Assembly: GCF_002571385.2 (NCBI RefSeq)
Contig: NW_019217795.1
Span: 1,324,715-1,388,714, forward strand
DNA length: 64,000 nt
Direction: 5' to 3'
Source: Stylophora pistillata
Taxonomy: Eukaryota
How positions within the stretch are numbered: position 1 is the first letter of the stretch; the number at the start of each line of letters is the position of its first letter. The translations under genes were made by a program, and so were the position numbers. This document shows positions 5,476-32,000 of this stretch, piece after piece. The notes beneath the pieces are model-generated. The model did not search any database. It saw nothing but the letters and a program-made list of their open reading frames with translations, and was not told the DNA's origin.

Positions 5476-6483
5476 TCACTGCGAAGCGGACAGGGCAGTA
5501 ACAGTGAAGGCCTCACCAAGTTGAATTACCTCGTCCTTTCTTTTCCAGAAAGTTAAGACTTGCAGGAATTCTGCTCTAAACGCTCTATTCATGACGCCAT
5601 ATATGACGGGATTAATGGAACAACTGCCGAAGCCGAGATATATGTACAACATAAAAACCTCTCGTGGGATGGCGAGTTTGTGTGCTGAGAAAGAATCGAC
5701 CATGTCAATAATAGCTATGGGTCCCCAACAAAGAATGAAGCCCAGTACAGTTGCGAATAATGCTTTTGTTATTCTCACCTCTTCCACATTCAATCGAAGG
5801 GTCACCCCTTTTCTTGTATTGTTCATCTCCTCATTGTGATGTTTGATGGTTTTAAAAATCTTGTAATATGCGAAGGTGATGATTCCAATAGGAACAGAGA
5901 TGTAGATAACATCCAAATACGCCATGTAGGCCATGTCCAGCTGCGGCGTATCAAAGTCCATAAAACAGATAACTTTACCGTAGTGCACGATAAATGTGGC
6001 CCATTGAGCCAACGATGAAAGCCCCGCACCAAAAGCAGCGAAAAGTGTTATGGCAACCACAGAAATACAGGTTGATTTGACTTTAAAACGCTGGCGATAA
6101 AGATTAGGTTTCACCACGCGAAAATATCGGTTGACAGCTGTTGCAGTCATAAGCAGCAAAGAAAATAGTGCACAGAAGAAACAAAAGAATCCTTGGAAAT
6201 GACAAACAGCACTGCTGAATGGCCACTGTCCTGTTACGAGAAGAACGACGGACATGGGCATACACAGGACTGCCATGAGAGCATCAGATATAGCCAGCGT
6301 CCCTACATAGATGTTTGGTATGGTGCGAAGTCGTTGGTTACGGTAGACAGCCCAGCAGACCAGCATGTTACCAGTGAAGGCCAGAATGTTGATACACATC
6401 ATAAGAGCACTTTCGAAGACAACCAAACCAAGTGAGCGTTGTTGCAGTTCTTCGGAAAGAATTGTTTGGCCTTCATTCGCCAT
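5476..6483 (-). CDS. Rhodopsin-class (class A) GPCR, melatonin-receptor-like, copy 2 (intronless, 335 aa)
   Basis: Single ORF MANEGQTILSEELQQR...ALSASQ with 7 hydrophobic segments and motifs TGN, LAISD, AVNRY, CWGP, NPVIY. NRY in place of DRY is typical of melatonin-type receptors; the ligand cannot be inferred. Confidence 0.93.
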   Translation of the reverse strand: MANEGQTILSEELQQRSLGLVVFESALMMCINILAFTGNMLVCWAVYRNQRLRTIPNIYVGTLAISDALMAVLCMPMSVVLLVTGQWPFSSAVCHFQGFFCFFCALFSLLLMTATAVNRYFRVVKPNLYRQRFKVKSTCISVVAITLFAAFGAGLSSLAQWATFIVHYGKVICFMDFDTPQLDMAYMAYLDVIYISVPIGIITFAYYKIFKTIKHHNEEMNNTRKGVTLRLNVEEVRITKALFATVLGFILCWGPIAIIDMVDSFSAHKLAIPREVFMLYIYLGFGSCSINPVIYGVMNRAFRAEFLQVLTFWKRKDEVIQLGEAFTVTALSASQ

Positions 6484-9509: not shown

Positions 9510-12500
9510 TGATGATAATAATAATAATAATAATAATAACGAGGCTTGCAATTCTGACATTTGGACGCATGGTGGGAAGGCGGTAGTTCTCAGACCATGA
9601 GTTCTTTTCAAGAATAACAGTGTTCGTGGGAGAAATTTAAGTTTGCACCCCACCTCTAGAACTACCCGTCGATATACAAATGAATATTAAAGCGATTTTT
9701 GCAGTAATGAACGCTACTTGAGCAGTAGTGAAAATAAGGCCTGGGAAAAAAAAATTCAAGCCTGTACGGGATTTGAACTCATGACCTCTGCGATACCGAT
9801 GTAGTGCTCTACCAACAGAGCGAACAAGTCAACTGGGAATTGGTCGTTATGCTGGTTGAATAAATGATGGTGAATATATGAAAATCATATGTGTGAACTG
9901 CGGGTTAAGTAATGAATATCAAAGCAATTATCATCGAGAAATGTAACCTCTCTTCGCTATTTTTCAGGCGATGGTAAGTTAAGTTACAGCGAGTTCATAG
10001 AGTTGATGAAAGATCGCCTCAAACGTGGATTCATGGTAAGCTTTTTTTTTCTTGAATACAACTTTAAGAGCTTAGCCTATGGGCCCCAGGCCCTCATTTC
10101 AAGTGCGAAGGGACGTGTTCGGCAAGACAGACGATTTGAAGAGAGGTTTGCATGGGGGCTGGCACTAATAATCAGTGTTCGACCCCTTTGCAGACCACTC
10201 GCGGGTTCTTGTTGCTCAAGGTCTCTTACCATCCTTCGGGCGAAGAAACGTTCGTCCCGAAGTGATAATGATAAGGGTGTGGTCGTGCTCACGACTAACG
10301 TTAACCTTGACAGAGAAATATCGGGGACTTTAAGCAGTCAGGACGGCAACGCCACGGAAGACGTCGATGAAAAAATGAGTTTCTACTTTTAGTTAGAATT
10401 TCGAAAATGGCTGCATGTGTTTACCGTCTCATAGGGCGCCAGACCTCAAACTCAACATAACGCATAAAAGTAGGGTTGATTTCCAAATGTAAATTAAAAT
10501 AATTTGCCGCCGCGGTTTCCCTTCGCAGACGACGCAAATTTTGGTGATCTCACGTTGTTGTTTTGCCAAGGATGGCTAAGAAATGTACAAAGTTTTAAAA
10601 CGCACGTGCTGGGCTATTGTTCTGCCGATTAGATCTATTGTTTTTCCACGTTCTCGTTGCCGTAGCTGTCGTGGTTTGCTTAAAGTCCCTAATGTCAAGA
10701 GAAAACTCTTCTTGTCATAAAGATAATCTTTGGGCTATCGTGCTGCTGAAGCTTGTATCCGCCCGCTTAGGTGAATTTGAATGTACGGTGATCTTGCTGA
10801 ACTTTTTCCCCCAATTTCTTCGCTTATCTGCTTTGTCTCAATAACTTTAAATTTCGGACGTAAGGTGGTTACTTTTACATGAATGAACACATCTTATCGG
10901 AATAACCTTTAGACGCTAATGCGACTCAAAGATGAATTTCCAAGGGGTATCCATTCTTGTAGATAGTGCGAGATACTTTTTCGGACGACCTTTCACCTCT
11001 TTTAAACGAAGCCTCGAAACAAAATTAACTAGGTCTTACTTTTATGAGGTAAGCTGTCATAAGCCTGCCCTTCTTTTCTGTTAAAAAGGCCCACTCGTCT
11101 CTTGGGCTCATTTACAACAATTCCAAGAAGAGAATATAAATATATAACCGAAACTATGATGACCTAGTGTGATTGTTTTACTGTTGGCGACCGCTTTCAA
11201 GGACCATTCCTGTAGGTGAGCCGTGTCTTCATATTCAATACAGCATGATGTACGTATGATGCACGATCCTCGCAGTAGAAAGCGAGGATCGTGCGAGAAA
11301 GCGAGATCGTGCTGTTACAATGATAGAAGCGCTATCGTTGTAACAGCATGATGTGTTTCATCTTGACTGCTACTTACAAAGAGAACGTGCGAATATACTG
11401 CTTTGATGTGGAAGAAAATGAATGCAGACTCATGCCAACAGATAAAGTTTAGCTAAAGATAATCTTCAAATTTGGGATTTAGTGGACGCACTTCCTTCCC
11501 CCTCCCCTTTCCGCGAAGAAAAAAAAATACAAATTCTCGTGCAGAAGCATTTGCCAAGGGCAAAAGTGTAAATAACGTGCCGTTAAGCGAAGGATTCCGT
11601 TGACAAAATCCGACCGTTGCACATAACTTCAAATCCAAAACTCGTCAAACTTCTCTAAATTTTGTTGGTTAATTCCAGAATAAATGGTCAATTCACGGGG
11701 CGTTTAGTCACTTGAACTGCCTAAACTTGTTGGGAATGATTTGTGAATTGACAAAGGCTTCGAATCAGCGAAACACTGAAGTCTTTCAAATAACTCATTC
11801 GTTTACTTGTACTTGTGACCTCAATGAGCTTGAAGGCCCGTTCAAAATGCGCACCATCAAAGTGAGACATATAAAAAAAAAAAAAAACAACAAAGTTTAA
11901 AAAATGAAACTAGAAGAGCTTTTGTATAAATATTACTATTGGTGGGATTATTTGAAATCCATGTGTCATGTATGTACTGCTCAGTTATTCAAGGCTAACA
12001 AAGATAAGTATTCACATAGTACTTATAAAAAAAAAGCTACTCTTCCAATCGTCTTTGTGATTTTATTCAAAATCTTTCCCCAAACTTCCGGTTTTAAATA
12101 ATTCTCGATTCTTTAGCAGTTTATTTATGTAAAAGAATTCCATCTGAGATGAAGACTTGACCTATAAATATCAAGATTGAGTTCAATCTATTCGAAAAAA
12201 TAAGTTACCGATACTCTGGGACTTTGCTTTCTGATAACTTATACTACCACAGCACAAATGAAAACAATTCAATGATTCCCTTCCATTGCAAATCACAACT
12301 TTATGCCATAAATTGTGCTGAAATTGAAAATAACCTTCTCGACGTTTTTTTAAGTTTATCCAAACGTAATCTTTCTTTCACCTCTGACAAAGTCCCTCTT
12401 TGCCCCAGCTTTACCCCTCTGTCTCTGTGATCTGTTTCAGTTTTTGTTTAAGGCGTAAGGCTTTGATACTATACTTCAGTGAACCCAATCAGCTCCCAAG

Positions 12501-15000
12501 ATTTGATGTATCGGTATTTGGTAGTTCTCCCTTTGGGGTGCTTTACGTTGGGAGAATTGGGAGTTACATCAAGTTAACACCCTCTATCAGATGAGTTTGT
12601 TTATTCCCATCACCTGTTTGTTGCAGAATATATTGAAGTAGTTAGAAAAAGTTACATTTTAGTCGTATGTGGGCGGTAAAGGGTGAATCGCTTGTCAATA
12701 GTAGCGGTATTGTAACAGTTTTCAGATGAGTGATTATTTTACACCCTCTTTCTTCCTTACGCTCTTTCTTTACCTTTGCTTAACCCTTTCTTGATTGCCA
12801 GTTATTATAAAGCAAGGGCAGGTATTCTTGCAAATGTATTTTCTGAAATAACACAGCTTATTATTGTTGTTGTGGACCTTGGAAAGTGATGCTAATCCCC
12901 CTGTAGCCTACAAAGTAGCAGTAAATCAGCTCTTGCTTGCCCCTTCATCAGGGCATGGGAAAGTTTGAACACTTGAGATTTGGTCTTGTAAGAGGAAATG
13001 ACCGGCGCCAGAAGAATATACCCCAGTTCAGCAAGCGGCTGAGGTTTCATGGATCCAGGGTGCAATCTGGAGCATTCATGGGGATCCTTTACCGATCTAG
13101 TTTACTAGGATTGATGAAAGTGTGCGAATGTTATTAGTGAGCAAGGTGAAGAGAACTGGCCTGGACACGTTGAACTAATCTGTTTGGTGCCTCCCTGGCT
13201 CATCTGGTAATTCTAGTAATAGAAACAAAGCTTTCCTTGGGTTATGAAGGCTTTATTTAATCTGATTCTTCCGTTGTGAAACTTGTGCGATCGTCTATTC
13301 CCAGAAATTTGATCGGAAATCTGACTAACTTTAGTTGAAATACCAGCACGTTCGTGATTCAAACTTTCTTGTCAAAGATAAAAAGTTGGCTGCAGCTGGA
13401 ATATCAACCGAAAAAGAGTTGTCGGTGGTTTTTATGCCCAGTTTGGACTCTGCTGTAACTCAGTGTCTGTGCATCTTGCGAAGTCAAGCTTACATTTTTG
13501 GTCTTCATTTGCAAGTTTACTCATTCCCAACCATTATAGTTGTCTTTTGAGTTACTGGACCTTCTGCGGTTTTTGTCTACTGTAGTAAATGATTACATAT
13601 ATTTTGACCTGTCCTTTTGAGGTTTTCTCCGTGACTCTGTTCATACTGTTTCGTGATATTGTGGTTTGAGTAAGAGTTTAAGCTCAGCATAGAATATTGC
13701 TCCTATAATATTTCCCTCTTAACGTCGACAGATGAGATTTCTTCCGCGAAAGTGGTTCTCAACGAGAAGGAACTTTGCCCCGAGTAGTTTGTTTGTTTTG
13801 TTTATCCGGAAGTGCCAAAAAAAAACCGGAAAAACTTGAGTCGGTTTATTTTTCTACTCACAGGAAGTACAGTGTGTAATCATGGTCGTTATTAAGCGTT
13901 TTATAAATGTTCACACGTAGAAGGAACTTCCTCAGTGTTGTTCAAAGAGCAGCACTCATTTTCCTTGTGCGAGAAATGTCAATAGATCACGAACACACAC
14001 ATGGGTCTAATTATAAACGCGATGGGTTATACCAAATGCGTTTAGTTACACTTGAACTAATTCACGTGATGATAATATTGGTGTGCATCATTCAATGTAT
14101 TTTGACAAGTCTCTTCAGGCTTAGAGGTTTAGTTTCAAGTGTGAGTTCTTGTGTTGTTAATAAATCTCTTCAGTACTGTATCTATTTAGCATTCTTGACA
14201 TTGTGTCACAAGTGTTTTTTTTTTGTGTCTTGATTGTAATACTTCAGAACGTTTTCAGTCCTTGACTTCAGTAGTAACTGTGCAGTGATAACTATGCAAC
14301 TGTTAAATCACCTTTTTTTAAGTTAAATCTCTGTTGCGGTTGGAATTGGAATCTGCTTGGAAGTTTCCCTACCTTTTCAAACTAGTGTAGGTCAAGAGTA
14401 ATCTTTGTGAAGTTTTAATCTGTGTTGTAATTATTGAACTTATAATTTTTTTCTTCTTCCTCTCGCCTCTTTTTTTTTCTCATATGTCGCTCCGAAAGAA
14501 GTCCTTGTTGTATTTATTGACACTCGTGTCTGTAGTATTATTCTTCATCGAATACTTTGTACCGTCATCGATGTCTCGGAATTTTTTTCATAAACACATT
14601 TGTACCCTTGCTGTGAATTTATACAGGTAATCTATTGAAGAGTTACGTATCCAACAGGTACCAAATCGTCTTCTTTTTGACAATTGTGGGGTCAAATGTC
14701 AAGACACTTAATACATTAATCTTTCAATGTATCTATTTCAATAACTGATGGTGACGCCTTATTAGCAGTGAGATGAATATGAAGTGTCATGCTCATTTCC
14801 TGTCTAGAGATCGTCTTGTGTGGCGTGGGGTTGATTGAAGTATGGTACTAATTTGTGACTAATGACTTTAAGACAAGGTGCGACTGGTTATTCAAAGTGG
14901 CATCTTAAAGTGAAATCTTTTATATAAACAGGTCCCGGCGTCAGAGAAGACCGGCTGGCTGGGTTTCAAGCAGTGTATCAAGAAAGAGATGTCCTTGTAG
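8957..15000 (+). CDS. MICU3: Calcium uptake protein, mitochondrial (MICU2/MICU3-like), last three exons: 8957-9046, 9968-10035, 14932-15000
   Basis: GT-AG exons with matching phases splice to ..EFQRAVRISTGQTLDPYVVHTVFQLFDKDGDGKLSYSEFIELMKDRLKRGFM-VPASEKTGWLGFKQCIKKEMSL*. This has a canonical EF-hand loop DKDGDGKLSYSE, the MKDRLxRG motif and the C-terminal FKxCxKKE helix of MICU2/3. Upstream exons were not found in the window. Confidence 0.85.
9457..9539. repeat. (AAT)n/(GAT)n microsatellite
   Basis: Visible trinucleotide run; explains the spurious poly-Leu ORF 9441-9653. Confidence 0.95.
9685..9925 (-). mobile_element. tRNA-derived SINE (same family as 52101-52283), degenerate
   Basis: Reverse complement gives ...GCTCTGTTGGTAGAGCACTACATCGGTATCGCAGAGGTCATGAGTTCAAATCCCGTACAGGCTTGA, with A/B-box-like motifs homologous to the 52.1 kb copy. 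Confidence 0.7.
10321..10692. mobile_element. Non-autonomous TIR element (MITE-like)
   Basis: Terminal inverted repeats GGGACTTTAAGCA ... TGCTTAAAGTCCC; no coding capacity. Confidence 0.65.
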
Positions 15001-16519
15001 CAAGGTCGGGGATTTGCTGTTATTTATTACAATTCCACCTCCTGGTTTGGCGTAAACTCTGAACCAAACCTAATATTCGCAACGCTCTAGAAATGAACAC
15101 TGAATTTTCTGTGCACGAATGGAGGAAATCAAAGTAACTTGCCCATAAAATTGAATATCAACTAAAGTTAAAGGATTTGTTTCAGCTGTATCTAAAAAGT
15201 ATTGATTATTCTATCGAGAAGAAATGGGTTTGCATTCAACGAAAACCGAATGTACACCCCAAATATTTGCGCGACAGTTTTAAAGGTTTCAAAACTTTTA
15301 ATGTTTATTTAACTGTAATTTTTTCGTGTTCGGCTCCTAGAGCCTCACAAGAAATTGGATGAAAATGGACACCATTGCCTTCTTTCGGATTAAATTCCCG
15401 AAAAGATTCGAGCCCTGCTACAATGTTTGTGACAACGAAGTTCAATTACCTTGTTCATTTAATTAATAGTTTTCATTGAAGATGATAGACCTCCATCACC
15501 ACTCATGAAGGAGTGTTGACAAGTCTATCACGATGTACACCGCTAACAGGTACATCTGATGACATCTGCGTCCAGAAAAACGTTATCGTACCTCTCCGGA
15601 AACGACCATTAATTAATGATTAGCGGCCATTAGTGTCGAGTGTGGCATGATAATGAACACGCTATGGCTATTAATGCATTATGCAGTGGAATTACAAGGT
15701 GTCTTGCTCTCGTGGATGAGGGCAGCATTTGAAGTGACAATGATTTATTGTTCCTGCAGAGTGGAGTCTAGATTGCGTGTAGTCGTGGTCTCATTTGCGG
15801 TTTACCCAAGGAAAGTAGTGTTTTTACGAGGTGATCGGTAAAACAGGATAATGCAAGGGGCGGCAGTAGACAAACATTCTTACTGACAAGTCTCAAGTTC
15901 TTATCTCAATTTACAGTGGGTTTTAGATTGTTCTAGATGACGTCATGAGGTTAAGTGCGTCCTAACGACAGTCAGTGTTTGGCAAAAAACAGGTCTGCTC
16001 CGAACGAATTGTGATCGCTCACTTGGGGAATTTGTTTTGCATTGAGTTGCCTAAAGCCATCTCAAGAAGGAAACGATCACTCGAGGTTTCACCAAAGATT
16101 GCGTGTATTTTGAGATTATTCGCCTTCTCGCCCCCTTAAATCGTCGACTCGTCTAAGCTCGAATCATAAAGCCGCCTAAAGCCTTTAATCATTCGATCAA
16201 TTTGTCTCGAGAATAGCTTTGAAATTCTTGCGTATATGCCACATAAGATGGATATGTCGCTATCTAGGTTCAGAGGAGACCGCGAGCGGTTTGTGTAGGA
16301 TGCAAAAACTGCTCTTTCTTGTCTTCATCGCACGCATCCCATCAGTGCATCACGCGACGGTAGCAGAAGCTATCTGGGGTTGAATCAGATTTCTACAAGT
16401 CACATGCCATCGCTCTTCACAAGTGCGCGCGTTCTGTTGATTATCACAAGACATAACAGCCTTGACTCGCGGTGATCTTACGTAGGGTATTCAGTGACCA
16501 CTGTGGCGCCCGTTTGGCC

Positions 16520-17586
16520 ATGTCAGTCTCGGTCGCACTTCCATTCTATTCGGCATCTCTGGGCCTTCTCATAGCGTTCGCCATCCTCCGGTTTCTATTC
16601 TGTACCTTGGTGTTTCGCAAGCTGGTCGTTAAACTGTTCATCAAGTTTGCAGGATGCGAAATCAGCCAAGAAGTGTACGGCAATAGTTTGTTTGGATGGG
16701 AGATGTACAAAGCCGTGACGGCCGCTTTGTTGACAGATCTGCAGAAAAAAGCTGAGCTCGGTGCAGAAGCACCAAATCCTTGTGTCGTGTCGGCCGACGG
16801 CCAGTTGCGTTCACATCTGTTGGACTTCGCCAAGAAGAGCAGGCCGCTGGTGGTGAATTTCGGCAGCTGCACTTGCCCTTTCTTCATGGACCGCCTCAAA
16901 GACTTCAGCGAGATCATGGCGGATTTTAGTGATATAGCTGATTTCGTCGTCATTTACATCTCCGAAGCGCATCCTTCAGATGGTTGGGCTTTCAAGGTAA
17001 TCTTAACAGCCTAAATTTACTTCTGAGATACCCAATTTGTCGTATGATCCTAGCAGAAATGTTACTTTCAAATCGGAGGATGGATTACCAACTCAAACTG
17101 GCTTTAAACGTCTCTATGTTATCCTCCTTCGCGCTTAGGTCCGTAGTATTATGGTGTATGTATTCATACGTATTCAGTCGAATTCGAAGAACCATGAAAT
17201 TAGACAACTATACAGTTTGTCGTCTGTATAGGAAGCCCTGTTTGAATATCTAATTAATGAAGGAATGAGCTCGGACTTTGCTCTAACTCGTTTACGCTTT
17301 TTACATCACGATTTAGACCAACTTCCACGTGAAACGGCATCGTACTCTGGAGGAAAGGGTCCAAGCCGCTCGGTTGTTTCAGGACGCGTCTAAGCTACAG
17401 GCTCCAGTGTTGGTGGATTGTGTAGAAAACGAAGCGAACCGAGCGTATGGCGCCCTGCCAATCCGACTTTGTATTATCTTAAATGGAAGAGTAGAGTTCG
17501 TTGGCGGGATGGGTCCGACATTTTACAAAACACAGGAGGTCAGAAGTTGGTTGACGACTTGGAGGGAAAGTGAATTGAACGTGTAA
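16520..17586 (+). CDS. DIO: Iodothyronine deiodinase-like protein A, Cys-type (exons 16520-16996, 17317-17586; 248 aa)
   Basis: N-terminal TM helix; RPLVVNFGSCTCPFF active-site motif (TGC at 16874-16876); YISEAHPSDGW; phase-0 GT-AG intron; exon 2 TNFHVKRHRTLEER...YGALPIRL...GGMGPTFY. Confidence 0.93.
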
Positions 17587-20500
17587 CTGTAGTGCTATAC
17601 ACGTGCACAAGTATTCAAAGTAGCACAGCGAGATACAAGGTGGAACACTAAAAAATGAAAGTTCAAGCACGTGTACTGATCGCGTTCTTTCGCCATCGCT
17701 GTATCACTTACATTCAAGAATATCATGAACAACATTATAAGGATTTTAATCAAGGGGCTAGTGTTGACCACACGACAAACGCTAGCCGTCAAGCCTAAAG
17801 CTACATATCTCTGTATGCTTGTAGGTTGTCATATTCAGTAGACCTGAAAACCTAAGTGCTGCCGGAGAGGCGTATATGGAAGATAAATTTGACACGAAAT
17901 TTCTTACTTGCTTCCCATCCGAAGACAATATTTAATAGCCATACATGCTTATATTTACTCTCGTTTCGTCGTACTAAGAGTTATTGGAAATTTGTATTCA
18001 AAACAGAAATTCTCTAGGATAAAAGGTAAACAGTTCCTTTTAGTCTCAGTTGTGAGTTTCGAGGTGTATATTACCAATAGTGATCCCTTCAAAAGCAATG
18101 TCACCAATTTCGTGGTATTTGCCTGAAGGTTAAAAGGACGAAAATACGATACAACTATTTTAATCTTGCCCTGTGCGGTCATAGCATTTGTGTTGTATAA
18201 CAAAACAAAGAACAAGGTGAGAAAAATAAATAACAGCTAAAAACTTGAATCTCGCTGCGAATTTTAATCCCCTAACCTCGTTTGGCGATCATTTCTACTT
18301 CACCTCAGCATATACAAACATGAAATCTAATTACGCGATTTTCTATCCATCAAAAACCGCAGGAAGTTGGTTAATGTCACTAGACGTCAAGTTGCATTTT
18401 TGTGCGTGAAGGTTGTTTATCGCAAATCCGGAAAAAGGTACACGGTAGCTTGACATTTTCAACTTGACCGGAAGATGAAAGTCCGTGGCATCAATCCTAG
18501 ATGATGAAATATAACATATTGCCAAGGAAATACCTATCAAACTGAACGCTATGAAATGATCCAAACAAAGCTCTTTGTTCAATTACAAGTTGTTTTCTAG
18601 TCGAATGACCCTGGAGGGTGTGCAAGCATTAAAACGTTTGCACTTCTGCAAAGTCCGCATCACGCGATGATTTTCTTATTGGACGTTAACGCTAAATATC
18701 CAAACACATGTGATTTGAGCTGACTGAGGAGAACTCTCGTATTATGCGCGATAATCTCTGATTGTCGAGACCCTATTTGGAAAGAAATGTTTACGAAATT
18801 TATCGCGTGACTATCGGGTCTGGTAAACAGCCTTTGTTTTTAGCGCGTGTGCCCGAGATCATTTAGGAAGTACCTCCTCGTCCATTGATTTACGATCTAA
18901 CGATCGATTGGCTAAGTGCTAATGAATGAGAACCCCACTTGAGAAGATTCGTTTTTCACTAAGTGATTTCTCTCGCTTGAATCCATCTGCGGTACAATCG
19001 TTGGCGACGACTGATTGGTTTCGCTAATCTACACTGTCCTTTATCAGGTTTTTTAGCTGTAGGGCTTCAAGCGTGGTACTGTTTGCTGAAAACTTTTTCA
19101 GTGTATTTCTTTTTTGGCAGGGAAATCAGTCGTTTAGTGGTAATCAGTGTTCTAATTTTAATCAAATGCATCATATTGTGACACATTTCAGCACTCACAG
19201 AGTAAAATGCTATTTGAAATCTGGTGAAATCACAGACTTCCGGTGTCGAAACGAATAAACATCATGAAATAAACAAATTAAGAAAAATACTATGTCACGG
19301 ATGAAAGAGATGGTGGCGAATCGAAAGGAAATTTGTTTTTCTTTTTTATGAAAGTGCAGAAACCAGTGTGAAGCTGATAAAGAGACTTTGAAACTTAAAA
19401 AATCGGCCAAGAATAATTCTAATTTCAGTTCATTCATTATCTGACATTTGAGTTAACCTCGCGTGATAGACACACAACGAATGCGTGAATTTGAACACTA
19501 CGTCATATTTGTCCAATTTCCTCACGAATATAGCTTTTCCTTTTATATCTGGCCGCTTGGATCACGTCTGAAACCCAAAAATATTTTACTTGGACTGGTC
19601 TTTATTAGAGAATTACCTTTTAAAACCTTCCGGTATTTTTCAAAGTATAATTATCGATATTTTCTTATTGTCTAGAAGTTGCTGGGCGGATAGGTCTGAA
19701 ACCGCCGAATTATAATTCTTGTGGATGGACTTTTAAAGAATACTTGAAATCAAAAGCGTTAGCATGGCCACTGGTGATTAAGTTGACATGAATCTCTTCA
19801 ATGCGAAAGAACTGATAAGACGTAAATTAAAATTAACAATTGCAAATTGGCACCTCGCTTCCGAGAAGTTCACTGATTCAAAAAATGGCGTTTACTTTAG
19901 GTCACGTACACCATTTTGTCTATTATCTCAGACGATTTAAAGAGATGATAATTTTTTTTTGCAGAGAACATTCCTTGCAAATTTATATCAGCTTTCGTAG
20001 GAAATGTCTTAAGAAAAAGTTGTAAACATCTTTGGATGTCAAAGGGTAACTACATATTTCTGCACATACACCTCCCTGGAATAGAACGAAACTTTGTTTC
20101 AGACAGGGACCTTCCTTTAAAACAGAACCTTAAAAGCACTCCCAAGGACTGTAGAATTACTCAGGTAGAGTTTCAAATTATTTTTAGACCCGCGTTAAAG
20201 GATTGACTTCATTAGTCATCAAAGAAACACTAATTACTTTTCACCGACGGTTCTTCGAGAAAGGGCAGAAGGGGCTAACCAAAACCATTATCTCTTCTCT
20301 CCAGCTCACGTGGTTTCTCAAATTGCGTGTTTCAAAGATTACTTTGAAAACAGAAAACCACCATCAAACCATGAATAGAAGCTATCTTCTGTCCATTTAC
20401 AAAAAGTATCAAACCAAGGCTTCACCTCTAAAAAAGGTAGCATTTCATTCCTCTGTTAAGACTTCCAGATGTTAATTTCACAGTTCGATCGTTTTAATTT

Positions 20501-23431
20501 TTTAAAGACTTAATTTGGTAATGACCACCACAAACACAGCTCGTTTCCAAAAATAGACTGTTTACTGAAAAGAACGCGATAACAGCTTCAATAGTTTTTC
20601 CAAAAGAGGGAAATATAGCAAGCATCTGCTCTGAGGTCGAATATGGAAGAAAAATGCCCTCAGCACATAACATTTAAACAGCAGGAGGTACAGTTATGGT
20701 TATTGCTTTGTTGCGCCGCACAGAACAAAAAAAAAAAGTGTATGGCCAGTGCAAATGTTGCTACGTCCAAAGGTGTTGGATATCGAGGAGTTGAAACACT
20801 TGAAGCAAGCTATCTACGTACTCTGGCACTCGACAAGGAAGATTCTCTCTCACCAGTGCCTCTCGCTTTAGCGCATAAACTAAGTCGCAGAGAAAAAAAA
20901 TCTAAAAAATTTGAGTTACTGAAAAAGCGCAATTTTTAATTTAGAATATGTCGAAAATTTAATTTAGCTAGTCACAAACTGAAAAAGGAGTTATTTTGTT
21001 ATGTACACAACTCCCGTCTCATAGAAATATGAAAATAAACATTTCACGGTAAGAAAAGTAAACACGGATTTGCTTTATAAACTGTAAATTCTTTCATAAG
21101 AACTAGTTTTCAACCCTTTTCAAGACCAGATACACTGCTACAGAAATTAGTTAAGGCCCGAAAATGTTGCAGTCAACCGCAGTTGATGAATTTTTTTCAG
21201 CTTCTGATGACTATAAATAAATTGTTTTAACTTTTGCGATAGCTGTATGAGTTGTTCAAACATCGCGTGATTTCATTGTATCTTTCATCGATTCTAGAAA
21301 GTTCAACTAAAACAGAATTATTTCACCTAGTACTTCTCATACCGGGAAAAACAAAACATAAATAACCGGTGAAATTGCCCTTACTTTGCAAAGTTTGATT
21401 CGAAAAGTAGAACTTCTCATGCAACTGAACAAATTATTCAATGGGAATACTTCGATCGCGTGACCTCAATCTTCGACAATTTCGCGTGTTCGCTGAATGA
21501 CGTAATGCAGAACATGAATGGGCACACTGCGTGTAAGCTCAATACAAGGGGTCCGTCAAAACAAACTTCCCACAGAGCTTAAGCGACATAGGAAATGAAC
21601 TTAACTGCGATCTTCCTTCAGCAGATTGTAATCTCGCACGCACAGCGACCTAAGTCAGATAAACAAGGAAAATTAAAAGGGAACATTTCTCGATTGTGGT
21701 AAATATTGATCTACGCTTGTTTGCATTTGAGTGAGAAACGTCCGACTTTCAGGCACCGAACAGCTAACACATAGTTTGCAGTGACATCAACCCGCAGTTT
21801 CAATCTGCGACACTTGCCATCAAGTTTATTTGTATTGAAAATAGGTTTAGGGACGCCAAAATGTTCTCTGTTACTGATTAAGTCATTTTGTAGGAGGGAA
21901 AAATCACTCCAAATCGATTTCCCCTTGTACCACTTCACTTTGTTTTGTTTTAGGCCTATCGCCGTCATCGTTTCATTGTTTATCACTCATTTTCAACGAT
22001 TATTAACACGTAATTTGTGTCAAAAGGAACATAAACCTCATTCACCGCAAGTCACGATACTGACGAGATCAAGTCTTTTCGCACATTAGAAACTATGAAA
22101 TGGGCGCAGATTCCAACAAGTATTTTCCCACTAAGACAGAACGACGAAATTGAAACTGGGACCGAAAACCTGCCACAGGTTCGTTTGCGTAGAGCGCGCA
22201 TGATTGACAGTCCTTGTGCAAATAAAATCTGGAAGATCTAGCAAGAGCACTAGCTAGAATTACGTAATTCAAAAATTCTCTGCCACTGGCGATTGTGGAA
22301 GGTTTGCAAACCGATGCGAAGTAATGGAGACGCTTTTAATGCACACTTCTAGTTCACTCTTAAAAGTATTCATCGAACACGACCGAGTCGAGCTGCTGCT
22401 AAAAGTGTTAATTTGATCGATTGATAGACACTAAGCCTCTACAAAAAAATTACAAACATTTAAACAGTTACCATTGCCTTCCGGCTCTTAGTCTCAAATA
22501 CAATGTTATTAATTAAGTGAGTTGTGTGAGGTATTTACTGCAACGCTGCGATACGCGTGCCACAAGAGTTGGCAAAAACGGTCCGAAACGTGTCTAGGAA
22601 CTGAATAAAATAATCAGCGGATTGTGCAGATTCTTTAGCCAAACCAAAGGATTACAGATGGAGAAAACAAGCTCAATAAGATTTTAGATATTTGAGGTGA
22701 ACAACAGGTTGACTTAACCCTGGGCTGCCCAAGGGAGGCGTGTAAAATCAACATGAGCTGCAGTTGTAAATGCACGCAATCTATCTTAATCACTTGGGGG
22801 TGACAGTCCAATCAGAGTTCACCTTAAAGTGCGATAAAAATTCCTTTCAGAGAAAAATTGGAACGAAGCGGGTAGGAATGTACCGCTTCGCTGGCTCAAA
22901 CTGGGCAATCGTGTTGAAATCGAGAGGTGTAAAGTACGTCAGAGGACTCGTACACTTGGAATAGACTATTTAACACGCGATTTATTTACATTCGTGTTTT
23001 CGCACGATGAACGACTGGTCAAGCAACTACAAAGACTTCCTTTCATCAATTATTACACTGAGCTTAGAATTAAAGTTGTCGCGACCGTTTAAGAAGCTAT
23101 TTCTACAGATCAATGACTCAACTGCTTGTAAGTAAGTTAAAGACAAATAGTGCAGTTACTCGGTCTACCACGACATCAAAACACGTCAACAATATCTCTT
23201 TGTTAGTTGCTACCTCAAATCTACCTTAAAAATTAGTATTTCTTTGAACATCGTTCTTGGTCATTGTTCGATACTTTTTGAGCAAGGATTCCCAGATCTG
23301 TGCGTTGCATGAATTGTTATAAACTTCCGGTTTTAGCCATTTATCCTAATTGTCTTTCCTTGCGTGGCTTGTTCTATGGAGGCGCATCATTTGAATGTTT
23401 TGTGTTCCTCGACTCGGTTGTTTCTAATGTT

Positions 23432-24376
23432 TTACGCCCGATGACGGCCAGTTTTCATAAGTTCAACCTTGTATTCCTTTAACCACTTTGCCACATTTTG
23501 TGGGTCGTAAAATGTCGGTCCAGTTAAACCAGCAAATTTCACTTTTTGATTCTTTATCACGTAAAGTCTGATAGGAAGCCCGGCGTATGCATTGTTAGCT
23601 TCGTTACCCATCGTGTCTATCATTATGGGACAGCTAAAGTGAACAGAGTCCTGCATAAGCTTTGCTGCTCGGCATCTATCCTCCAGGGTCTTGTGGGTAG
23701 AAATTTTGACGTTGTTCTAAGTATGAGATAGAAAGATTTAGTCAGTTGCTGTGGGTCTCTAAATCATTTTGCATAGGTTGGACTGTAACAATTACTCACA
23801 TTAGGAAACTTCTAAGGGGCGTGCACAGGTAAATTTTGCTCATGTAGAAACTGTAAGGAAATAGTTTTTTTAAAAGACCTTGTATCTCACCTCAAAAGCC
23901 CAACCGTCACTTGGATGGGCTTCCTCGACGTATATAGTAAGGAAATCAGCAACATCACTGAATTCCTGTACCACGCTTAGAAATTCGCCCACCCTAGCTC
24001 TAAAAACTGGGCAGGTCCAGCTGCAGAAGTTGACAACCAGTGGACGGCTCCCCTTGCAGAAGCTGAGCAGTCGACTATGCGACTCTCCGTCTAAGGAAGC
24101 AAGGAGAGGGTCCGGTGCCGTGTGATCCTTTCTTACAGTTTTCAGAAGCTCGAGATGGATGGAATTGCGCACAGATTTCAACATCTGCCAACTAAACAGT
24201 GAACTCCAGTACATTTCCTTTGGCAGCGGTACAACCGATGTCAAGTCCATCAGTTTAACCACGATCCATCTTGTTCTGGGCAAAATTCTGAGAACGCGTA
24301 GGAATGAAAATGCCACCAAGAGAAGCAGTGTTGCTGCGCAGTGTACAAACGTGATACTGGTCATTTTCCGCGACAT
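23432..24376 (-). CDS. DIO: Iodothyronine deiodinase-like protein B, Cys-type (exons 24376-23891, 23716-23432; about 256 aa)
   Basis: RPLVVNFCSWTCPVF (TGC at 24013-24011); YVEEAHPSDGW; same phase-0 intron as paralogue A; exon 2 NNVKISTHKTLEDR...CPIMIDTMGN...YAGLPIRL...GPTFY. The start could be Met at 24376 or 24364. Confidence 0.92.
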
Positions 24377-27300
24377 TTTTTTTCCTCGTCGAAGCAGCAG
24401 AGCCAGCGAGTCAAAGCTCGTGTGTATCTCCACTCGAACACTTTCCGTGGGTTTGAGGACCGCAATGACAGCGTATTTATACAGCACCGAAGGAATGTCA
24501 GTAATTTTGTTTCTCTTGAAAACACTCATTCGACAAATCTGACCTCGCCGATGAACTCTCGCGTGACGGTTACGCGGTTTTTTTTCGTGCTGGCAGGTGC
24601 GGCGTGCAGCTCTGGAACCAATGAAACCCAAACAGACAGACTTGCGCAACTATGTAGGACAAATTTTGTCTCTTCTTATTCAAATAGCACATCTGTTGTC
24701 ACAATAAAAAAAGGTGTTCAGCTATTTGCGAACAATTGGCGCCGACAATTTCTCTGCGTGCGTAATGTGGTATGATTTATCGTTAGCGCTATGTATGCCG
24801 TCCGATTCTCTTGCGAAAATTGACCCACATTTATTCGTTGCGTCTCACGGAATAGTGATATTTCGTCTAAGCCTCTTTAGTTCAAGCACTACTTTCTTGT
24901 TATTTAAAGTTGTGCATGTGTTCCGTTCAAGTTTCAGTTGTCATCGCTGAAGAGTGAAGAGTTCTTGAAAAAGTTGTTAATCTGACGTTCCCGATTAAGT
25001 CGTGTTACTGATTTTCGCAAGGCCTAGCCACGAAAGCACACGATGCTTTGGTGCTTTGGGACCATGTTGTTAATCGTTTAAACAGATTTAAAACATAAGT
25101 GTTCAAGGACGCCAAAAATAGAGAAGTGCTAGACTTCTTTGCGGTGGTGTTTTTTCCACATATGTGCGTTGACGTATTTTTCGATCTTTTTTGCATGCCA
25201 CAGTATGTAGTCTGTTAAAAATAGCTATTGGCTTGCGCTTGTTTCTCACTGTGCTCTATATTTGGACTTTTTGATGGAATAAAAGCTCTCCTTTAGTGAT
25301 AAACCCATGTGCTTTGTTAAAAGAATGCACGAAGCCGAGTGAGAACATGAACAAGAGAACAACAACTGAAATCAAAGAGACCCTGCTTCGAGGAAGAAAA
25401 AAACAAAAAGGATCACTAGTACGAGAGGAAAATTCGTGCGTCTAGCAACTGTAGTCAACATCTAGAAAAATGAATTACGTTTAAAAGGGAAGTTTATGAC
25501 CAATAAAACTATTTATACAAACAGTGTTCATATTGAAAATAACATGTAATATCTACAGACATTTCTGATGGATTGTAAACAGCGATGAAGCTTGCGTTTA
25601 GAGCCTATTTTGGAGCCTATTGCTCAAAATATTCGTGTCCTATTTGAAGTTGTTCTCAAATGTTGCACATTCTCTGAAAGTTTTTGTTACGGCCTATCGA
25701 CTTTTAAGCATGTATTGTTCAAAACTAATAAGTGTAGGAGTTGGAGTATTGGTTGATAATGAAGTAGCTGTAAAAAGGAAAATTGAAGGTTCGGATACCA
25801 CATCCTCTTAAACTCTGAACTTTAAGAAACCTTTTCTGCATTTAAGATGATGGTTGGTTATAAAATAAACTGCCTTGATTCTTGCTATTTGTGAAACTCC
25901 AGAAATTCGGAGAGCGTACGGATTTTACACCAGAGCATATTTTCAAACAATGAACCTCAGCTCTAGTGATTTCCAAAAATCCAAGTCGCCTGAGGAAGTG
26001 TTTTGATGCAGCGTTCGCGTGACATCTGCTGCTTAACCCGGCTGTGTGTTCGTGCTGAAAACACNCTTATCTTGCACGCAATGATGACGGTGCAATCAAC
26101 AAACCCTTGATTCTTTTCACTCCTTTATTATTGTTTGACTCCGATCATTTGAAAATGTGTAATATTGGATTAAAACGCGACAAGATGAGACACAAGTTGA
26201 GAAAAAAAATCGTGATAACAACGAGCTAGACATTGATATGGGTTAATACCTCTCCACAGTTAACAGACATAACAATGCTATTTCGTCATCGCCTCTCAGT
26301 GACGGTGACCTACGTTGGTTCAAGAGGAGAGTCAAAGTTCCTGCATTCCTCATAAATAATACTTTATCGTTACCTTGGAAAATGCAAGGAATACGAAAGC
26401 ATGCTTTTGATGTCACCAACGTCATTTTTTTAGTCATTTGATTCAAATTAACATGATTCACTGATTTCTTAGATGCGTATATATAAATAAATGGTGTAAT
26501 GTTTATATTGTAGATTTTTAATACTTGTACAGTTTTAGGTTAATTATTGTTGTAATGCGCTTTTGACCACCTGGTATGTTAAAAGGCGCACTATAAACCA
26601 ATAAATTTTTATTAATATTATTCACTGCAGAATTCTGAAAGATTCGTCTGAGGCTTCCAAAAAAGGAAGATTTTTGTAGCCTTCCCGAGAGGCAGATTCT
26701 TCATAGAACAAAAAAGAGTCTTCTTTTACAGTCGAAAGAACATGTTTCTGCCGGGAAATACTAGTACATCTCGTCTAGTTTGTAACTTGTTTGTCGTAAC
26801 AAAGTTGCAACCCAAGTGCTCAATGAACCCTGTCTCTAAGCTGAACATGACCGGTCTTTCGAGTGAGACACCACTTAAGACACCTCTCTCCATTTTACAA
26901 CTGCAACAAGACTTATGATCTTGACTTTTTCTGCCATTTTGCTTGCTAAGTATACAATGATACATCGGATAGGAATTTCTTAATGAAAATACATCACGTC
27001 ATTTAATTAGTTCCCTACGTACGAAGTGATGGAAGGTGGTTTAAATAGTCCACTTAGATCTTAGTGCCTCTTGACTTTTAATTACCTTCAAACGCGTTGT
27101 AGAACTTACGCGATCCCGATAGCGCGCGCTCTCTTTGCAGAAACGTTTGTAAAAGGACACAAGCAGCTCTTTCTCATAGGTTACACGATTTATGAGGCTT
27201 CTTCAATTACACTCAAATGCATGTACCACATACGCTTCGAGGCCAAATAAAATATTGTAATTTGTACTTGTATAGTAATTTATTCATAGCTTCCCTTTGA

Positions 27301-27727
27301 GCAGATCAATGTTCCGACTTAGAACGTGACATTGAAACAGTACATTACCCACTATGCGTGGTCGTCACTAAGTGTTATATGAGGATCTGAGACCTGTAGT
27401 ATCAAAATAATAGTTACAATATGTATGTGTACTGTACAAAATTCTTCTTGTTTTACGACATATTCACACCAGACTTGAAGATTCATATATGCAACATCTC
27501 TTCCTTCAATTTTCTCTTTTGTTGAAACTCCTACAGAATATTGTCTTGGCGGTTTGATTCCTCCAGACAATGATCCTTCAAGATACTACTTAATTATCAG
27601 ACTGAAGTGGTCTGCGGTCAAAGTTAACATACACGCAGATTCAAATAATCCACGTGCGTCTCGCGTGCTAGAGCAGTCATTTGTCTAAAGTCAAACGTGG
27701 GTCCATCTTGTTTTCCCGCGAATTTAT

Positions 27728-29063
27728 CTACGCTCTGTGCCTAGTGGTTTTCGGATGAATTCTGATGCTCTGAAGCCGTTGTCTCACTTCCGTAAGATTG
27801 TAAAATGTGGGTCCCATCCCCCCTGCGTATTGTATTTGGTTCCTTTGAATGATGTAGAGTCTGATTGGCATACCAGCGTAAGCCTTGTTTGCATCATTCG
27901 CCATGGTGTCAACCACAACTGGACAGTTAAATTTCACTGAGTCCAACATCAACTTTGCAGCGCTACTCCTCTCTTCCTGAGTTTGGTGTTGGGGTATCGT
28001 GATGTTATTCTGCAAGACAAACCACATCATTGTGAGGACGATAGTCTCCCAGTGATCTTATATGGACAATGATGTTTGCCCTTAAGGTTTCTTTTCCTTT
28101 AGAGTTAAGTCGCTGTCTTAATTCTTTGAAAAAATTTGCATTAAGTGACGATTTAGAACGCAATGAAAATTTTGCCCCAAAGGTAATCAGTAGAGTTAAG
28201 ACTGCATTCGCTTTTTTTCCCGAACATTCTACGAATGAAAGGCAATTGTTTTGTTTTTGGGATAAATGTGTCTATCAGTGTGATCGTTACAAATAACATT
28301 GATTTGTATTACTAGTATTTCTTTATCTCGGTCTTTCTTATTAAAATATTTGTGAAACAATGAATCATCGACTCCTTAAAACTGACTAAATCCTTCAGTC
28401 AACAGAACGTAACCGGTATCAGCCAATCTTTCCTATGAAATACAGATGTGGCTTCTCGTTAAATTCATGTACTTGATGGCTTGACCTTGAAAGTAATAAT
28501 TTGAACTTGGCATTGCTGCTCACTTACATCAAAATCTCCTAATCTTTGGTATCTGATAACAGTCTATGGCATGCGCTCACCTCCAATTTCCAACCATTGG
28601 TCGGATGGGCTTCTTCAATGTATATCGTCAAGAAGTCGGCCACGTCACTGAATTCTTGCACAATGGAGAGGAACTCGTTCACCCTGTTCCTGAAAACAGG
28701 GCAGGTCCAACTGCCAAAGTTAACGACAAGAGGACGGTTACCTCTACAAAATTCTAAGAGACGGTAACGTGATTTTCCGTCTACGGAAATGAGCTGGGAG
28801 TCTGGAGCGATTTTTCCCCTAGAAGCTGTCTTCTGCAGTTCGAGTAGCATTGACGAGCGTTTGGAACTAAACATGGACCATGTGAATAGTGAATCCCAGT
28901 AGTCTTCCCTGGGCATTTGGATTGTCGAAATCCTGTTTACAAACTCTGAGATGATCCACTGTGCACAAGGAACGAGTTTTAATAGCCGCAACACTATAAA
29001 CGTTAGTAACAGCATTAAAGTCCCGAGGTAGTAGCAGAAAAACGTACACGTGCTGAAGATCAT
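27728..29063 (-). CDS. DIO: Iodothyronine deiodinase-like protein C, Cys-type (exons 29063-28581, 28009-27728; 254 aa)
   Basis: RPLVVNFGSWTCPVF (TGC at 28703-28701); YIEEAHPTNGW; same phase-0 intron; exon 2 NNITIPQHQTQEER...CPVVVDTMAN...YAGMPIRL...GGMGPTFY. Confidence 0.93.
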
Positions 29064-32000
29064 CTTAACGCATAAGAACTGCAGTGTTAACTGCACCGTG
29101 TCTGAGATTCAACTGGACCGAGAGCTTTACGAATTGCTTTTCACAGCGGGAGAATTTAAAGAATGTCTTTTATTGCGACCTCTTACGTGATTTTCACATT
29201 TTTTTTTAGTCACAGCTCGAGCGTGCAATGCGGAAAATAATTATTAGGAGCGGGAAGGGTATATCTTTAGCGAAGTCTTTGCTTCTTTAGCTATATTTGG
29301 CTCGGCTTACCTCTGGTATTTAGCGGTAACGCTTTTACAAACGAACTAAACACAACTGTTCGCAGCAGTAGCACTCGGCGTGCGCTAGACGCAGTGTTGA
29401 ATTGCAGGCCTGCACTCTCTTGTTAAGTATTTTTCAATGACCCCCATTTGTTCTCGAAGTTATGATGAGCACGCAACAAATTAGAATTTCTTTTTACCAT
29501 GACTAAAGATTTCTTATTCCATAAATCACTGTTAGAGGACAAAAATTTGATACGAAGCTGGCAAAAAATAATTACTCTCATCTGCATTTCAATGCGAGGG
29601 CACTTAAGAGCGTCTTGAAATGAAATAGCTAGAGGAATCAAAACTGAACTATCGATATTTCACGCTGCGATATAGTTTGCCAATAGTCCCACAATAGATA
29701 GTTTGCCGCCAAGTTTTGCGTGATTTTGAAGTTGTAAACAAATGTTATTTTCATCACGCGATGAATTGCACAAGACTCACGCGAAAGGAAGCGAAATTTT
29801 ACAGATACTCCGAAATGGTGCTCTTGGCTGTTTATTTTACAATTGCTCGAGGTTTTTGACATAAAGCGCAAATATTAAACACTTGCGTAACTGAACATAA
29901 TTGACTATTTGTGTGTCTTTTCCGTTGCAAAATTTCCTCACGGCATGACGCTCTTTTAAAGTAATCAAGAGTTTGCCCCAGTGCACATGTTGGCATGTTA
30001 GAAGCTGTCGCTACGCTCATTATGGTACGCTTTTAGACGGCAAATTGCGAAAACCCTGTTAAAGGCTTAATGAGTTTCAAAAATAGATAACCATCCTGAG
30101 ACATGCCGCGAGTCATAAATTAACTGCTCTTGGGATGCCCAAATGCAATAATGGATGAACCGCAAACTGATCGCCTAGCTCAGTTCTATAAGAAAAACCT
30201 CACCATCAGAAAAAATAACTCGTACGATAAATGATGACAGAGACTGTTTTTGTAAATTTGGCTTGAAGGTAAATTTCTGCAAGGCACGTTCAACACAGTG
30301 GAAGCAAGTTACTTGGGAGCAAGCGGCCTGTCTTATTTCCTGCTTTTCTGAAGCAGTGATAGCGGCGGAAGGAAGTTCCCATTTTGGCCGCGGCGTTGAA
30401 GCTGGGCGAAAACGCTTTTCTTGCACGTACACTTGCACTTCTCGTCGAAACAAATGGCTACGTGAAGCGGGGAAAGACTTTACTTAAATCATTTTTAAAT
30501 CATGTTTCAATTTTTAAGGTTAGAACACAAGAAAAAGAACACCATATCCGTTTTGATTTCCTCATTCAGTTTGTGCATAATTTGGTGAGCGGAAAAAGGA
30601 GAACGTGCTCTTACCAAGTCGTCTAGACGTAATTATTCAACCTTTAACGCCCTTTCGAGTGGCTCACATACGATGTTTGAAATTAAATTAACGAGAAAAG
30701 AACTACTCGGTGAATGAAAGGCAAAGAAGCCAATGTCAGTAACTGTACCTTTACGAAATCTTTATCTAGTTGTTACGTCTCGGATGGTCTCCATAATATG
30801 ACTGATACATGCTTTTTGCATACGACACGCGAACAGACCTTTTGTTCTATAATCAGCGTGCATAGTTCACTAACTTTGTCACCATCAGTTACCCTGAAGT
30901 TTTTACCACATGTTTCACTCAGTGAAGCTAAAGACTGCGAGAAAGTTCGTCAAACGCGACAAAATTAGATGACTTCGATCAAAATATATTTTGGACGCGG
31001 CTATGAGCTCGTTAAATCATTGACAATTAGTGAAAGTAGGGTCTCGAAAAGGTCTCTTGAGTGTGTTTTCTTCTTCCCCGCGGTTTTCTTTTATACGTCA
31101 GTGCTCCCATAGAAGTACGTGATTTATTGCTTTTACGAAATAAAAGGCAATTACTTAAAGGCTTTAATATGGCGACAATTCAAGAGCTCTTAAGCAGAAA
31201 GCCAGAGAGCCCAAAACACCGAATAATTGGGTGTGTAATCGTTTTTGCGAAGTATTTTGACGAATGCGGACTTTAAACCCTCGCAGAAATTATTTAAAGT
31301 GATTTAATACATGGTAATATAGACACCGCGAGTGTCACTTGCCTTTTGGCACGGGCCAAGGCAAATTTTTAAGGTAAACCACTACAGTGCCACAACTCAC
31401 ACGTCTTTTATAGTGAACTTCGTCAGCACGTAATGACGTAATCTCTAGATTTTTAAGTTTTTCTTCGAGCTGTTTAATAGAACTGAGTACTAATGAAACT
31501 GCGTACCCCGTGCAAAAGTTTATGGTAAGTAAGAAAAATACAGCACAATTCCTTCTTCAGTTCCTTTTATAACATTTTTTTTTTTTAATTAAAGTGAAAA
31601 ACGTTTTTTTTCCTCAATTTAAGAGTGCTCTTGACAATTCCGCCCTTAAATTCTCTGTTGCGGCTTTAGTAATTTTAATAATAAAAATATAGTGGCTGCC
31701 TGTATTATTCCATTCATTAGCTCTTTGCTAAGTTTGCGTCAGTTTTGCACATTCTGTTGCATAGGTACTGCAAAGACTGCTACCTCTATTATTTCAAATT
31801 TGTACAAATTAGAAGGGTTTGGGTGTGTCAAGTTAAACGTGGAAGGGACTAAAAATAACGCAAAGACACTTTCAAAAATTAACTCAATGGGACGGGTGGC
31901 AGATGTTCAATTAGACACGCTTGGTTAGGATCAGGCCATTTGACTTCTGATTAGGGGAGGTACGAAGATGCGTTGTCTCCTCCCATTTCTTAAGAGTCAA

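Follow-up and report, generated by a model that had tools for sequence, protein, structure and literature searches.

A cluster of three cysteine-type deiodinase-like genes in a stony coral that also carries selenocysteine-type paralogues

What deiodinases do in animals without a thyroid gland or a known thyroid receptor is the question raised by a 64,000-nucleotide stretch of the Stylophora pistillata genome (contig NW_019217795.1, positions 1,324,715 to 1,388,714; hereafter the window). Three intact two-exon genes of the deiodinase family (PF00837), here named A, B and C, lie together at positions 16520-29063. A sequence-only reading had described them as selenium-free paralogues with the same phase-0 intron after an EAHPxxGW motif, in a probable cnidarian. 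Coordinates, reading frames and Pfam matches bear out the gene structures, and the host is a pocilloporid stony coral: the spliced protein of gene A matches P0323, filed as 'thyroxine 5-deiodinase-like [Stylophora pistillata]', at 100% identity and proteins of Pocillopora at 92%, so the family assignment already stands in public annotation. The three genes are best explained as an old tandem set that would use a cysteine (Cys) thiolate in place of selenocysteine (Sec). They belong to a genome that offers a natural comparison, five Cys-type paralogues with Ile against three Sec-type paralogues with Glu, split at one residue of the substrate pocket.

Gene structures, transcripts and the selenium background

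Gene A lies on the plus strand. Its first coding exon (16520..16996, from open reading frame and Pfam match) encodes a hydrophobic N-terminal anchor, the motif SCTC and Y-x-x-EAHP-x-x-GW; after an intron of 320 nt (16997..17316), the second (17317..17586) holds the equivalent of Dio3 His219 and the motif P-I-R-L, with the codon for Ile208 (17461..17463) at the Dio3 Glu259 site. Genes B and C are on the minus strand. In gene B, exon 1 (23891..24376; an alternative second Met at 24364 is possible) encodes SWTC, a 174-nt intron follows (23717..23890), and exon 2 (23432..23716) carries the distal Cys191 and the Ile211 codon (23570-23572). Gene C likewise has SWTC in exon 1 (28581..29063), an intron of 571 nt (28010..28580), and a distal Cys190 and the Ile210 codon (27863-27865) in exon 2 (27728..28009). 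Where DIO1-3 have an in-frame UGA for Sec, all three genes have TGC, at 16874..16876 in A (Cys119, the position of Dio3 Sec170, with the proximal Cys117 two residues earlier), 24013-24011 in B and 28703-28701 in C, and none has an internal stop. The proteins measure 248 (A), 256 (B) and 254 (C) residues and are well diverged, with pairwise identities of 44% (A-B), 41% (A-C) and 55% (B-C). Each gene has one intron, GT-AG and phase 0, located 3 codons past the Trp of EAHPxxGW. All six exons score above the cut-off of the Pfam T4_deiodinase profile (77-133 bits against 27), a family match far beyond chance, and in exon-wise scans at E<=0.001 PF00837 was the sole family that the six exons matched, the peroxiredoxin (AhpC/TSA) families remaining unmatched. 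Hydropathy predicts an N-terminal membrane anchor in all three proteins (best 19-residue Kyte-Doolittle means of 2.51, 2.25 and 2.19). No fourth deiodinase copy is present within the window.

The sequence-only reading had proposed a check of the splice junctions, and this was done with contigs of 4 among 24 listed sequencing runs (X2, X7, X8 and X17). All three introns are joined out in each of the three RNA-type runs X2, X7 and X8, which come from three studies and of which X8 is RNA by guess only; contigs of X17, a run of unrecorded type, are unspliced at all three introns (0/1). The gene B joint differs by one letter in X7 and X8, and the short side of the joint is just 28 letters in 3 of the 9 joints. 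The Logan protein P0003 agrees exactly with spliced gene C from residue 17 to the end (238 residues). The probable 3' untranslated region (UTR) of gene A spans 17587..18249; RNA contigs stop at 18182-18249, one run showing a loose, A-rich end at 18249. Just after gene C, an AT-rich repeated element (approximately 26460-26620) gathers many loose contig ends, from RNA and non-RNA runs, and shows raised depth.

A genome-wide search with PF00837 gave 18 exon matches at 9 loci, comprising 5 Cys copies, 3 intact TGA copies and 1 broken copy. Outside the window, contig C25 of the assembly (G000) has three (one TGA, two Cys), C51 two (both TGA) and C208 the broken one. The intron position is identical in all 8 intact paralogues (one acceptor is tentative); the shared intron noted earlier is thus real for A, B and C but marks the family and not the cluster. 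For the selenocysteine insertion sequence (SECIS) element we used a home-made hairpin pattern, loosened once after its first version missed one TGA gene. It gave 3 hits in 408,000 strand-bases, one behind each intact TGA gene, while no such hairpin was found with it within 5 kb behind any of the 5 Cys genes, the gene A 3' UTR included, in agreement with the earlier description of A, B and C as selenium-free. Rfam scans of window positions 14000-32000 and of 7 loci round the other paralogues returned no SECIS even behind the TGA genes, and were therefore taken as uninformative and not used. The genome does contain tRNA-Sec (two matches, 77.8 bits against a cut-off of 47). Together with the three TGA copies and their SECIS-like hairpins, this indicates that Cys is peculiar to these paralogues and does not reflect loss of the selenium pathway; the phrase 'Sec-independent family', applied to the locus at the outset, overstates the case in this genome.

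In the second deiodinase group (G000:C25:557301-623236; L027-L034), the single Sec gene carries the unusual motif SSSU-QP and is accompanied by a SECIS-like hairpin; the two Cys/Ile genes lie 50-60 kb from it, with other genes in between. Relatives of this group in Acropora, Oculina, Desmophyllum, Orbicella, Porites and anemones have the same Sec or Cys states where the site is seen. The broken copy (G000:C208:155518-157239; L025, L026, L039) combines a catalytic-site TGA with a frameshift and a premature stop; in a separate scan, a SECIS-like hairpin is still found approximately 2 kb downstream.

To follow the catalytic residue across species, database proteins were assigned to the eight genes by at least 60% exon-1 identity. 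The catalytic Cys is kept in 23/24 rows for gene A (no residue aligns in the exception), 13/13 for B and 24/24 for C, and in 36/36 and 13/13 rows for the other two Cys genes. For the three TGA genes, 15/15, 11/11 and 14/15 rows have W at this site, the residue that some gene callers write for TGA; P0114, at 96% identity to one of the TGA genes, served as a check on this proxy. The three Sec orthogroups are thus maintained across corals as well.

A careful tree was built from 50 selected rows after removal of the catalytic and Glu/Ile columns. Gene A forms a clade with proteins of Orbicella, Desmophyllum and Montipora (support 100/100), and B and C form one with proteins of Desmophyllum, Oculina and Montipora (100/97). 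The arrangement A..C recurs in Desmophyllum, and the cluster is therefore old, as the sequence-only reading had supposed. It may be older still: A, B and C group with the Nematostella protein P0066 in 616 of 1000 bootstraps and without it in 17, so that A may have separated from B/C before corals and anemones diverged, albeit with weak support. Only 1 bootstrap in 1000 unites all anthozoan Cys genes, yet the approximately unbiased (AU) test leaves a single origin unrejected (p 0.229); two independent origins of the Cys/Ile state are favoured by the bootstrap but not established. In the careful tree, the Sec gene on C25 stands as sister of the Cys genes there (93/76). A quick tree had nested it within the Cys genes, and a regain of Sec from Cys, considered on that basis, was dropped given the sister position. 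Amphioxus P0071 groups with the A/B/C clades weakly in the careful tree (79/52) and is ungrouped in the quick tree.

Neither the Cys state nor the clustering is new in itself, and the novelty first attached to the locus was overstated. Cys forms only are described among the Nematostella deiodinase genes in a 2012 study, which also reports tandem clusters in Trichoplax, amphioxus (Branchiostoma) and Lottia (PMC3473315); a further report gives deiodinase counts of 4 and 5 in two anemones, four being the count for Nematostella (PMC3909931). The Nematostella genes resemble ours in the catalytic Cys and in lacking an acid at the Glu site, where P0066 and P0226 have Thr, but this coral carries three Sec orthogroups besides. 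The other tandem clusters are similar in having at least 3 paralogues in mixed orientation, yet they are described as Sec-type with SECIS elements behind some members (PMC3473315), whereas the coral cluster is all Cys. What sets the locus apart is the coupled change in the pocket together with the coexisting Sec paralogues.

Fold and substrate pocket

An AlphaFold2 model was made for gene C only, from a 90-sequence alignment, and A and B were compared by sequence. The model has a mean predicted local distance difference test score (pLDDT) of 96.4; a single-sequence model reached only 40.9 and was discarded. Its best structural match is Dio3 (4TR4; Z 24.1, root-mean-square deviation 3.6, 175 aligned residues), and Foldseek returned Dio3 (E 6e-19) and Dio2 (E 2e-18). 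The model has a thioredoxin/peroxiredoxin-type core with the insertion specific to deiodinases, in line with the deiodinase-like assignment first made. Identity to vertebrate deiodinases over the catalytic core is 42-43%. Compared with DIO1-3 (4TR3/4TR4, 9H48), the cluster proteins share the fold, the N-terminal anchor, the S-x-T-(U/C) motif and the omega loop, and all three have equivalents of Dio3 Ser167, Thr169, Tyr197, Glu200, His202, Trp207, His219 and Arg260, i.e., of the relay and loop residues and the pocket Arg. They differ in having Cys for Sec, no SECIS-like element and Ile at Glu259. The Arg275/Lys241 clamp is absent from the cluster genes, but also from the coral Sec copies.

The auxiliary cysteines divide the cluster. 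Gene A has the proximal Cys (SCTC) and lacks the distal one (Dio3 Cys239 position), whereas in B and C a Trp takes the proximal position (168; SWTC) and the distal Cys is kept. B and C therefore probably recycle differently from A.

The most telling position lies just after the pocket gate, where YAGMPIRL of the cluster genes aligns with YGAYFERL of Dio3: A, B and C have P-I-R in place of the F-E-R or P-E-R of vertebrate enzymes. The Glu259-Arg260 pair of the deiodinase amino-acid cleft is thus Ile-Arg in all three. In a modelling study of Dio2, the equivalent Glu225, described as conserved in Dio1 and Dio2, 'might support' binding of the substrate's alpha-amino group and Arg226 is proposed to form the floor for its carboxylate (PMC11592359); by alignment, Dio3 has Glu at this site as well. 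The Pro at the Phe258 gate and the missing second Pro of the PP motif are both Dio1-like, and the same study proposes that these two features widen the site of Dio1 and admit tetraiodothyroacetic acid (TETRAC) (PMC11592359).

Throughout the coral genome, the Glu259 site follows the catalytic residue, with Ile in 5/5 Cys genes and Glu in 3/3 TGA genes. Catalytic column aside, it is the sole one of 253 columns to split the 8 paralogues perfectly, although, of the 55 other ways to divide them 3/5, 3 likewise yield one such column (V/I, D/E and Q/L). Across the family, 117 aligned rows have both sites. Of the 29 TGA-type rows among them, 28 are acidic at the Glu259 site; of the 81 Cys rows, 71 are not; the other 7 carry a different catalytic residue. 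Two proteins with two domains each enter this tally twice, and 32 of its rows are Ile forms closely related to one another, most of them from corals. C-terminal fragments, which probably stem from Sec genes truncated at the TGA, are acidic at this site in 24 of 25 cases. Among the database proteins, P0093 and P0157 (455-458 residues) consist of two tandem deiodinase-like domains, with a catalytic Cys in the first and Ser in the second.

What the cluster enzymes might act on

With Ile in place of the Glu proposed to bind the amino group, and with the Arg kept, the substrate of A, B and C is most likely an acid without an amino group. Our leading but tentative reading, to which we give somewhat less than an even chance, is that the three proteins are membrane-anchored, thiol-driven reductive dehalogenases of such halo-aromatic acids. 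Halogen metabolism on non-thyronine compounds, suggested in the sequence-only reading, stays hypothetical, but the change from Glu259 to Ile, which that reading had not noted, lends it a concrete argument from sequence. The Cys would take the halogen off the aryl halide as X+, with the conserved Ser/Thr-Tyr-Glu-His network supplying or organising the proton; the resulting sulfenyl halide would be resolved by the proximal Cys in A or the distal Cys in B and C, and thioredoxin or glutathione would recycle the enzyme. The retained Arg would hold the substrate carboxylate. Candidate substrates would be compounds like triiodothyroacetic acid (TRIAC) or TETRAC, or a derivative of a halotyrosine that has lost its amino group; amino-acid substrates would fall to the three Sec/Glu paralogues. 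The split thereby yields a single-residue prediction about the substrate, amino acid versus deaminated acid, and about the changes that a selenoenzyme needs in order to work with sulfur. Amphioxus provides the closest precedent: a review, citing Klootwijk 2011, reports that its Cys deiodinase accepts TRIAC and TETRAC but not thyroxine (T4), triiodothyronine (T3) or reverse T3 (rT3), and that the animal has a TRIAC-binding thyroid receptor (PMC8143656). Another source lists thyroid receptor homologues for bilaterian groups and, for cnidarians, describes strobilation via RXR (PMC8222990). The amphioxus record P0071 resembles the cluster genes in being a natural Cys form beside Sec paralogues, in having lost Glu259 and in its Pro gate.

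Several observations weigh against the acid-substrate proposal. P0071, which may or may not be the assayed amphioxus enzyme, has Asp at the Glu259 site where the cluster genes have Ile. The coupling has exceptions, since 10 of the 81 Cys rows are acidic (e.g., Actinostola SCTC/PERL), and the rows are related: the tree offers 1 independent pair if only well-supported branches count and 4 if all do, a number too small to test the coupling. Distant Cys homologues, some named bacterial or peroxiredoxin, are also non-acidic, so the Glu may have been lost to suit Cys chemistry rather than to select a substrate. In a molecular dynamics study, Glu259 instead forms a salt bridge with Arg176 on the floor of the pocket, and it is backbone groups that hold the amino-acid end of the substrate (PMC7506546). 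Finally, in the open-licence literature searched we found no halo-aromatic acid substrate in corals, and no title or abstract on a coral deiodinase substrate or on the split between Sec/Glu and Cys/Ile.

The first alternative, unlikely but to be taken seriously, is that A, B and C are ordinary, slower iodothyronine or halotyrosine deiodinases, with the Ile either a clade mark or a compensation for Cys chemistry, in which removal of a nearby acid would make thiolate formation easier. The finding would then amount, if T4 activity proved ordinary, to one more invertebrate deiodinase cluster. Human Dio2 with Sec133 replaced by Cys still deiodinates rT3 in the presence of dithiothreitol (PMC11592359), and the family-wide company of Cys and a non-acidic residue, distant homologues included, fits this explanation, as does the single origin of the anthozoan Cys genes that the AU test did not reject. 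However, three Sec/Glu copies are already in the genome for that job, and the sole natural Cys enzyme for which we found an assay, that of amphioxus, is the one reported to reject T4, T3 and rT3 (PMC8143656). The presence of the Glu in all three vertebrate types argues against this explanation as well.

Rather less probable are broad debrominases that would detoxify, or clear cues among, marine bromophenols, bromopyrroles (such as the settlement cue tetrabromopyrrole) and brominated diphenyl ethers. The wide and more hydrophobic pocket, with its Pro gate, its Ile and the Trp of SWTC, would suit such compounds, but the Arg of the carboxylate floor is kept. Copy number is apparently stable across coral families, while detoxification families typically show fast turnover. 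In favour of this reading, a bacterial enzyme, Bmp8, removes bromine with a Cys by comparable chemistry; it is not among the listed fold matches of the gene C model, which excludes nothing. In Acropora millepora a deiodinase-like transcript, of unspecified paralogue, belongs to a pool enriched in pre-settlement planulae (PMC3204972), yet no paper linking coral deiodinases to these substrates turned up in the open-licence literature searched.

To be doubted to the same degree is a reused peroxiredoxin-like scaffold, on which A, B and C would be membrane thiol peroxidases or oxidoreductases and would not dehalogenate at all. After the deiodinases, the next structural neighbours of the gene C model are indeed peroxiredoxins and thiol-disulfide reductases (Z 13-15, top 15.2), distant Cys homologues carry automatic 'peroxiredoxin/AhpC' names, and the equivalent site is used by the alkyl ligands of alkyl peroxidases (PMC11592359). 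Against this, the deiodinase-specific omega loop (EAHPxxGW...H) is wholly retained, identity is 42% to Dio3 and at most 20% to the peroxiredoxin rows, and the six exons match PF00837 only. It is highly improbable that the three lack catalysis or are decaying, as mere binding proteins or relics: replacing Sec by Cys greatly slows selenodeiodinases and another copy in this genome is broken (that on C208), but the cluster genes have intact frames, spliced transcripts and all relay residues, exon 1 of gene A is 75-83% identical to its orthologues across coral families, and pN is 0.29-0.41 against a pS of 0.70-0.84 between the paralogues, dS being near or past saturation.

Neighbouring genes and a linked receptor

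Upstream of gene A, the window contains a single-exon rhodopsin-type G protein-coupled receptor (GPCR) gene on the minus strand (5476..6483), with orthologues next to the deiodinase cluster in other corals, and a second single-exon copy (approximately 3-941, minus strand) whose DNA agrees with it at 98% over 932 nt. Relatives of these genes are named melatonin, dopamine or 5-HT receptor-like, and a third close copy (86%) is at G000:C406:146476-147075. Both GPCR genes appear to be nested in one intron of a MICU2/3-like calcium uptake gene on the plus strand, judging from a putative exon chain with last exons at 8957-9046, 9968-10035 and 14932-15000 and a further exon approximately 8.2 kb before the window. 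This gene ends approximately 1.5 kb upstream of gene A; RNA contigs of gene A reach back beyond position 15800, and the MICU 3' UTR may therefore adjoin the gene A 5' end or overlap with it.

The linkage recurs in Desmophyllum, where the consecutive accessions KAJ7325696-98 are GPCR orthologues and are followed by the orthologue of A (KAJ7325699) and that of C (KAJ7325701). Indirect evidence comes from contig sizes in a sample of 26 of 120 listed GPCR hits (closer relatives, on contigs >16 kb): of the 25 distinct sizes, 8 equal that of a record of A/B/C type (one being the host species) and one more matches a Montipora-cluster record, while none (0/25) equals that of a record from the other deiodinase orthogroups. 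In Acropora tenuis, a deiodinase (g81) and an adjacent 'DRD5-like' GPCR (g82) are reported to be two of a set of 5 genes whose levels increase during the week preceding spawning (PMC12573721). The A. tenuis deiodinase was considered as a member of the A/B/C clade, but its Nematostella seed orthologue is EDO36682, which differs from EDO49673 (P0066, the anemone protein nearest the cluster genes) and from EDO41990 (P0082), so that this comparison does not connect it with the cluster.

A functional link between GPCR and deiodinases is speculative, and ordinary microsynteny suffices to explain the linkage. With the GPCRs apparently inside a MICU intron, and at least 150 related GPCR stretches in the genome, the linkage is weak evidence of function. 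At its most ambitious, the comparison could point to two parallel coral systems, Sec/Glu enzymes for halogenated amino acids and Cys/Ile enzymes, arisen more than once, for deaminated halo-aromatic acids, with A, B, C and the orphan GPCR as a module for a halogenated signal that would time spawning or settlement without a thyroid hormone receptor. We consider this full scheme improbable, but a GPCR that reads the same molecule would offer a chemical handle on coral spawning or settlement.

Downstream of gene C, the window continues with a multi-exon octopine/opine dehydrogenase-like gene (PF02317) on the minus strand at 35442-38404. A further multi-exon gene (45592-58667, minus strand) combines an EF-Tu domain 2 exon with lysine/glutamate-rich upstream exons and, going by the profile match, is presumably eIF5B; inside it are two putative retroelement-like open frames at 46363-48231 and 48621-48995.

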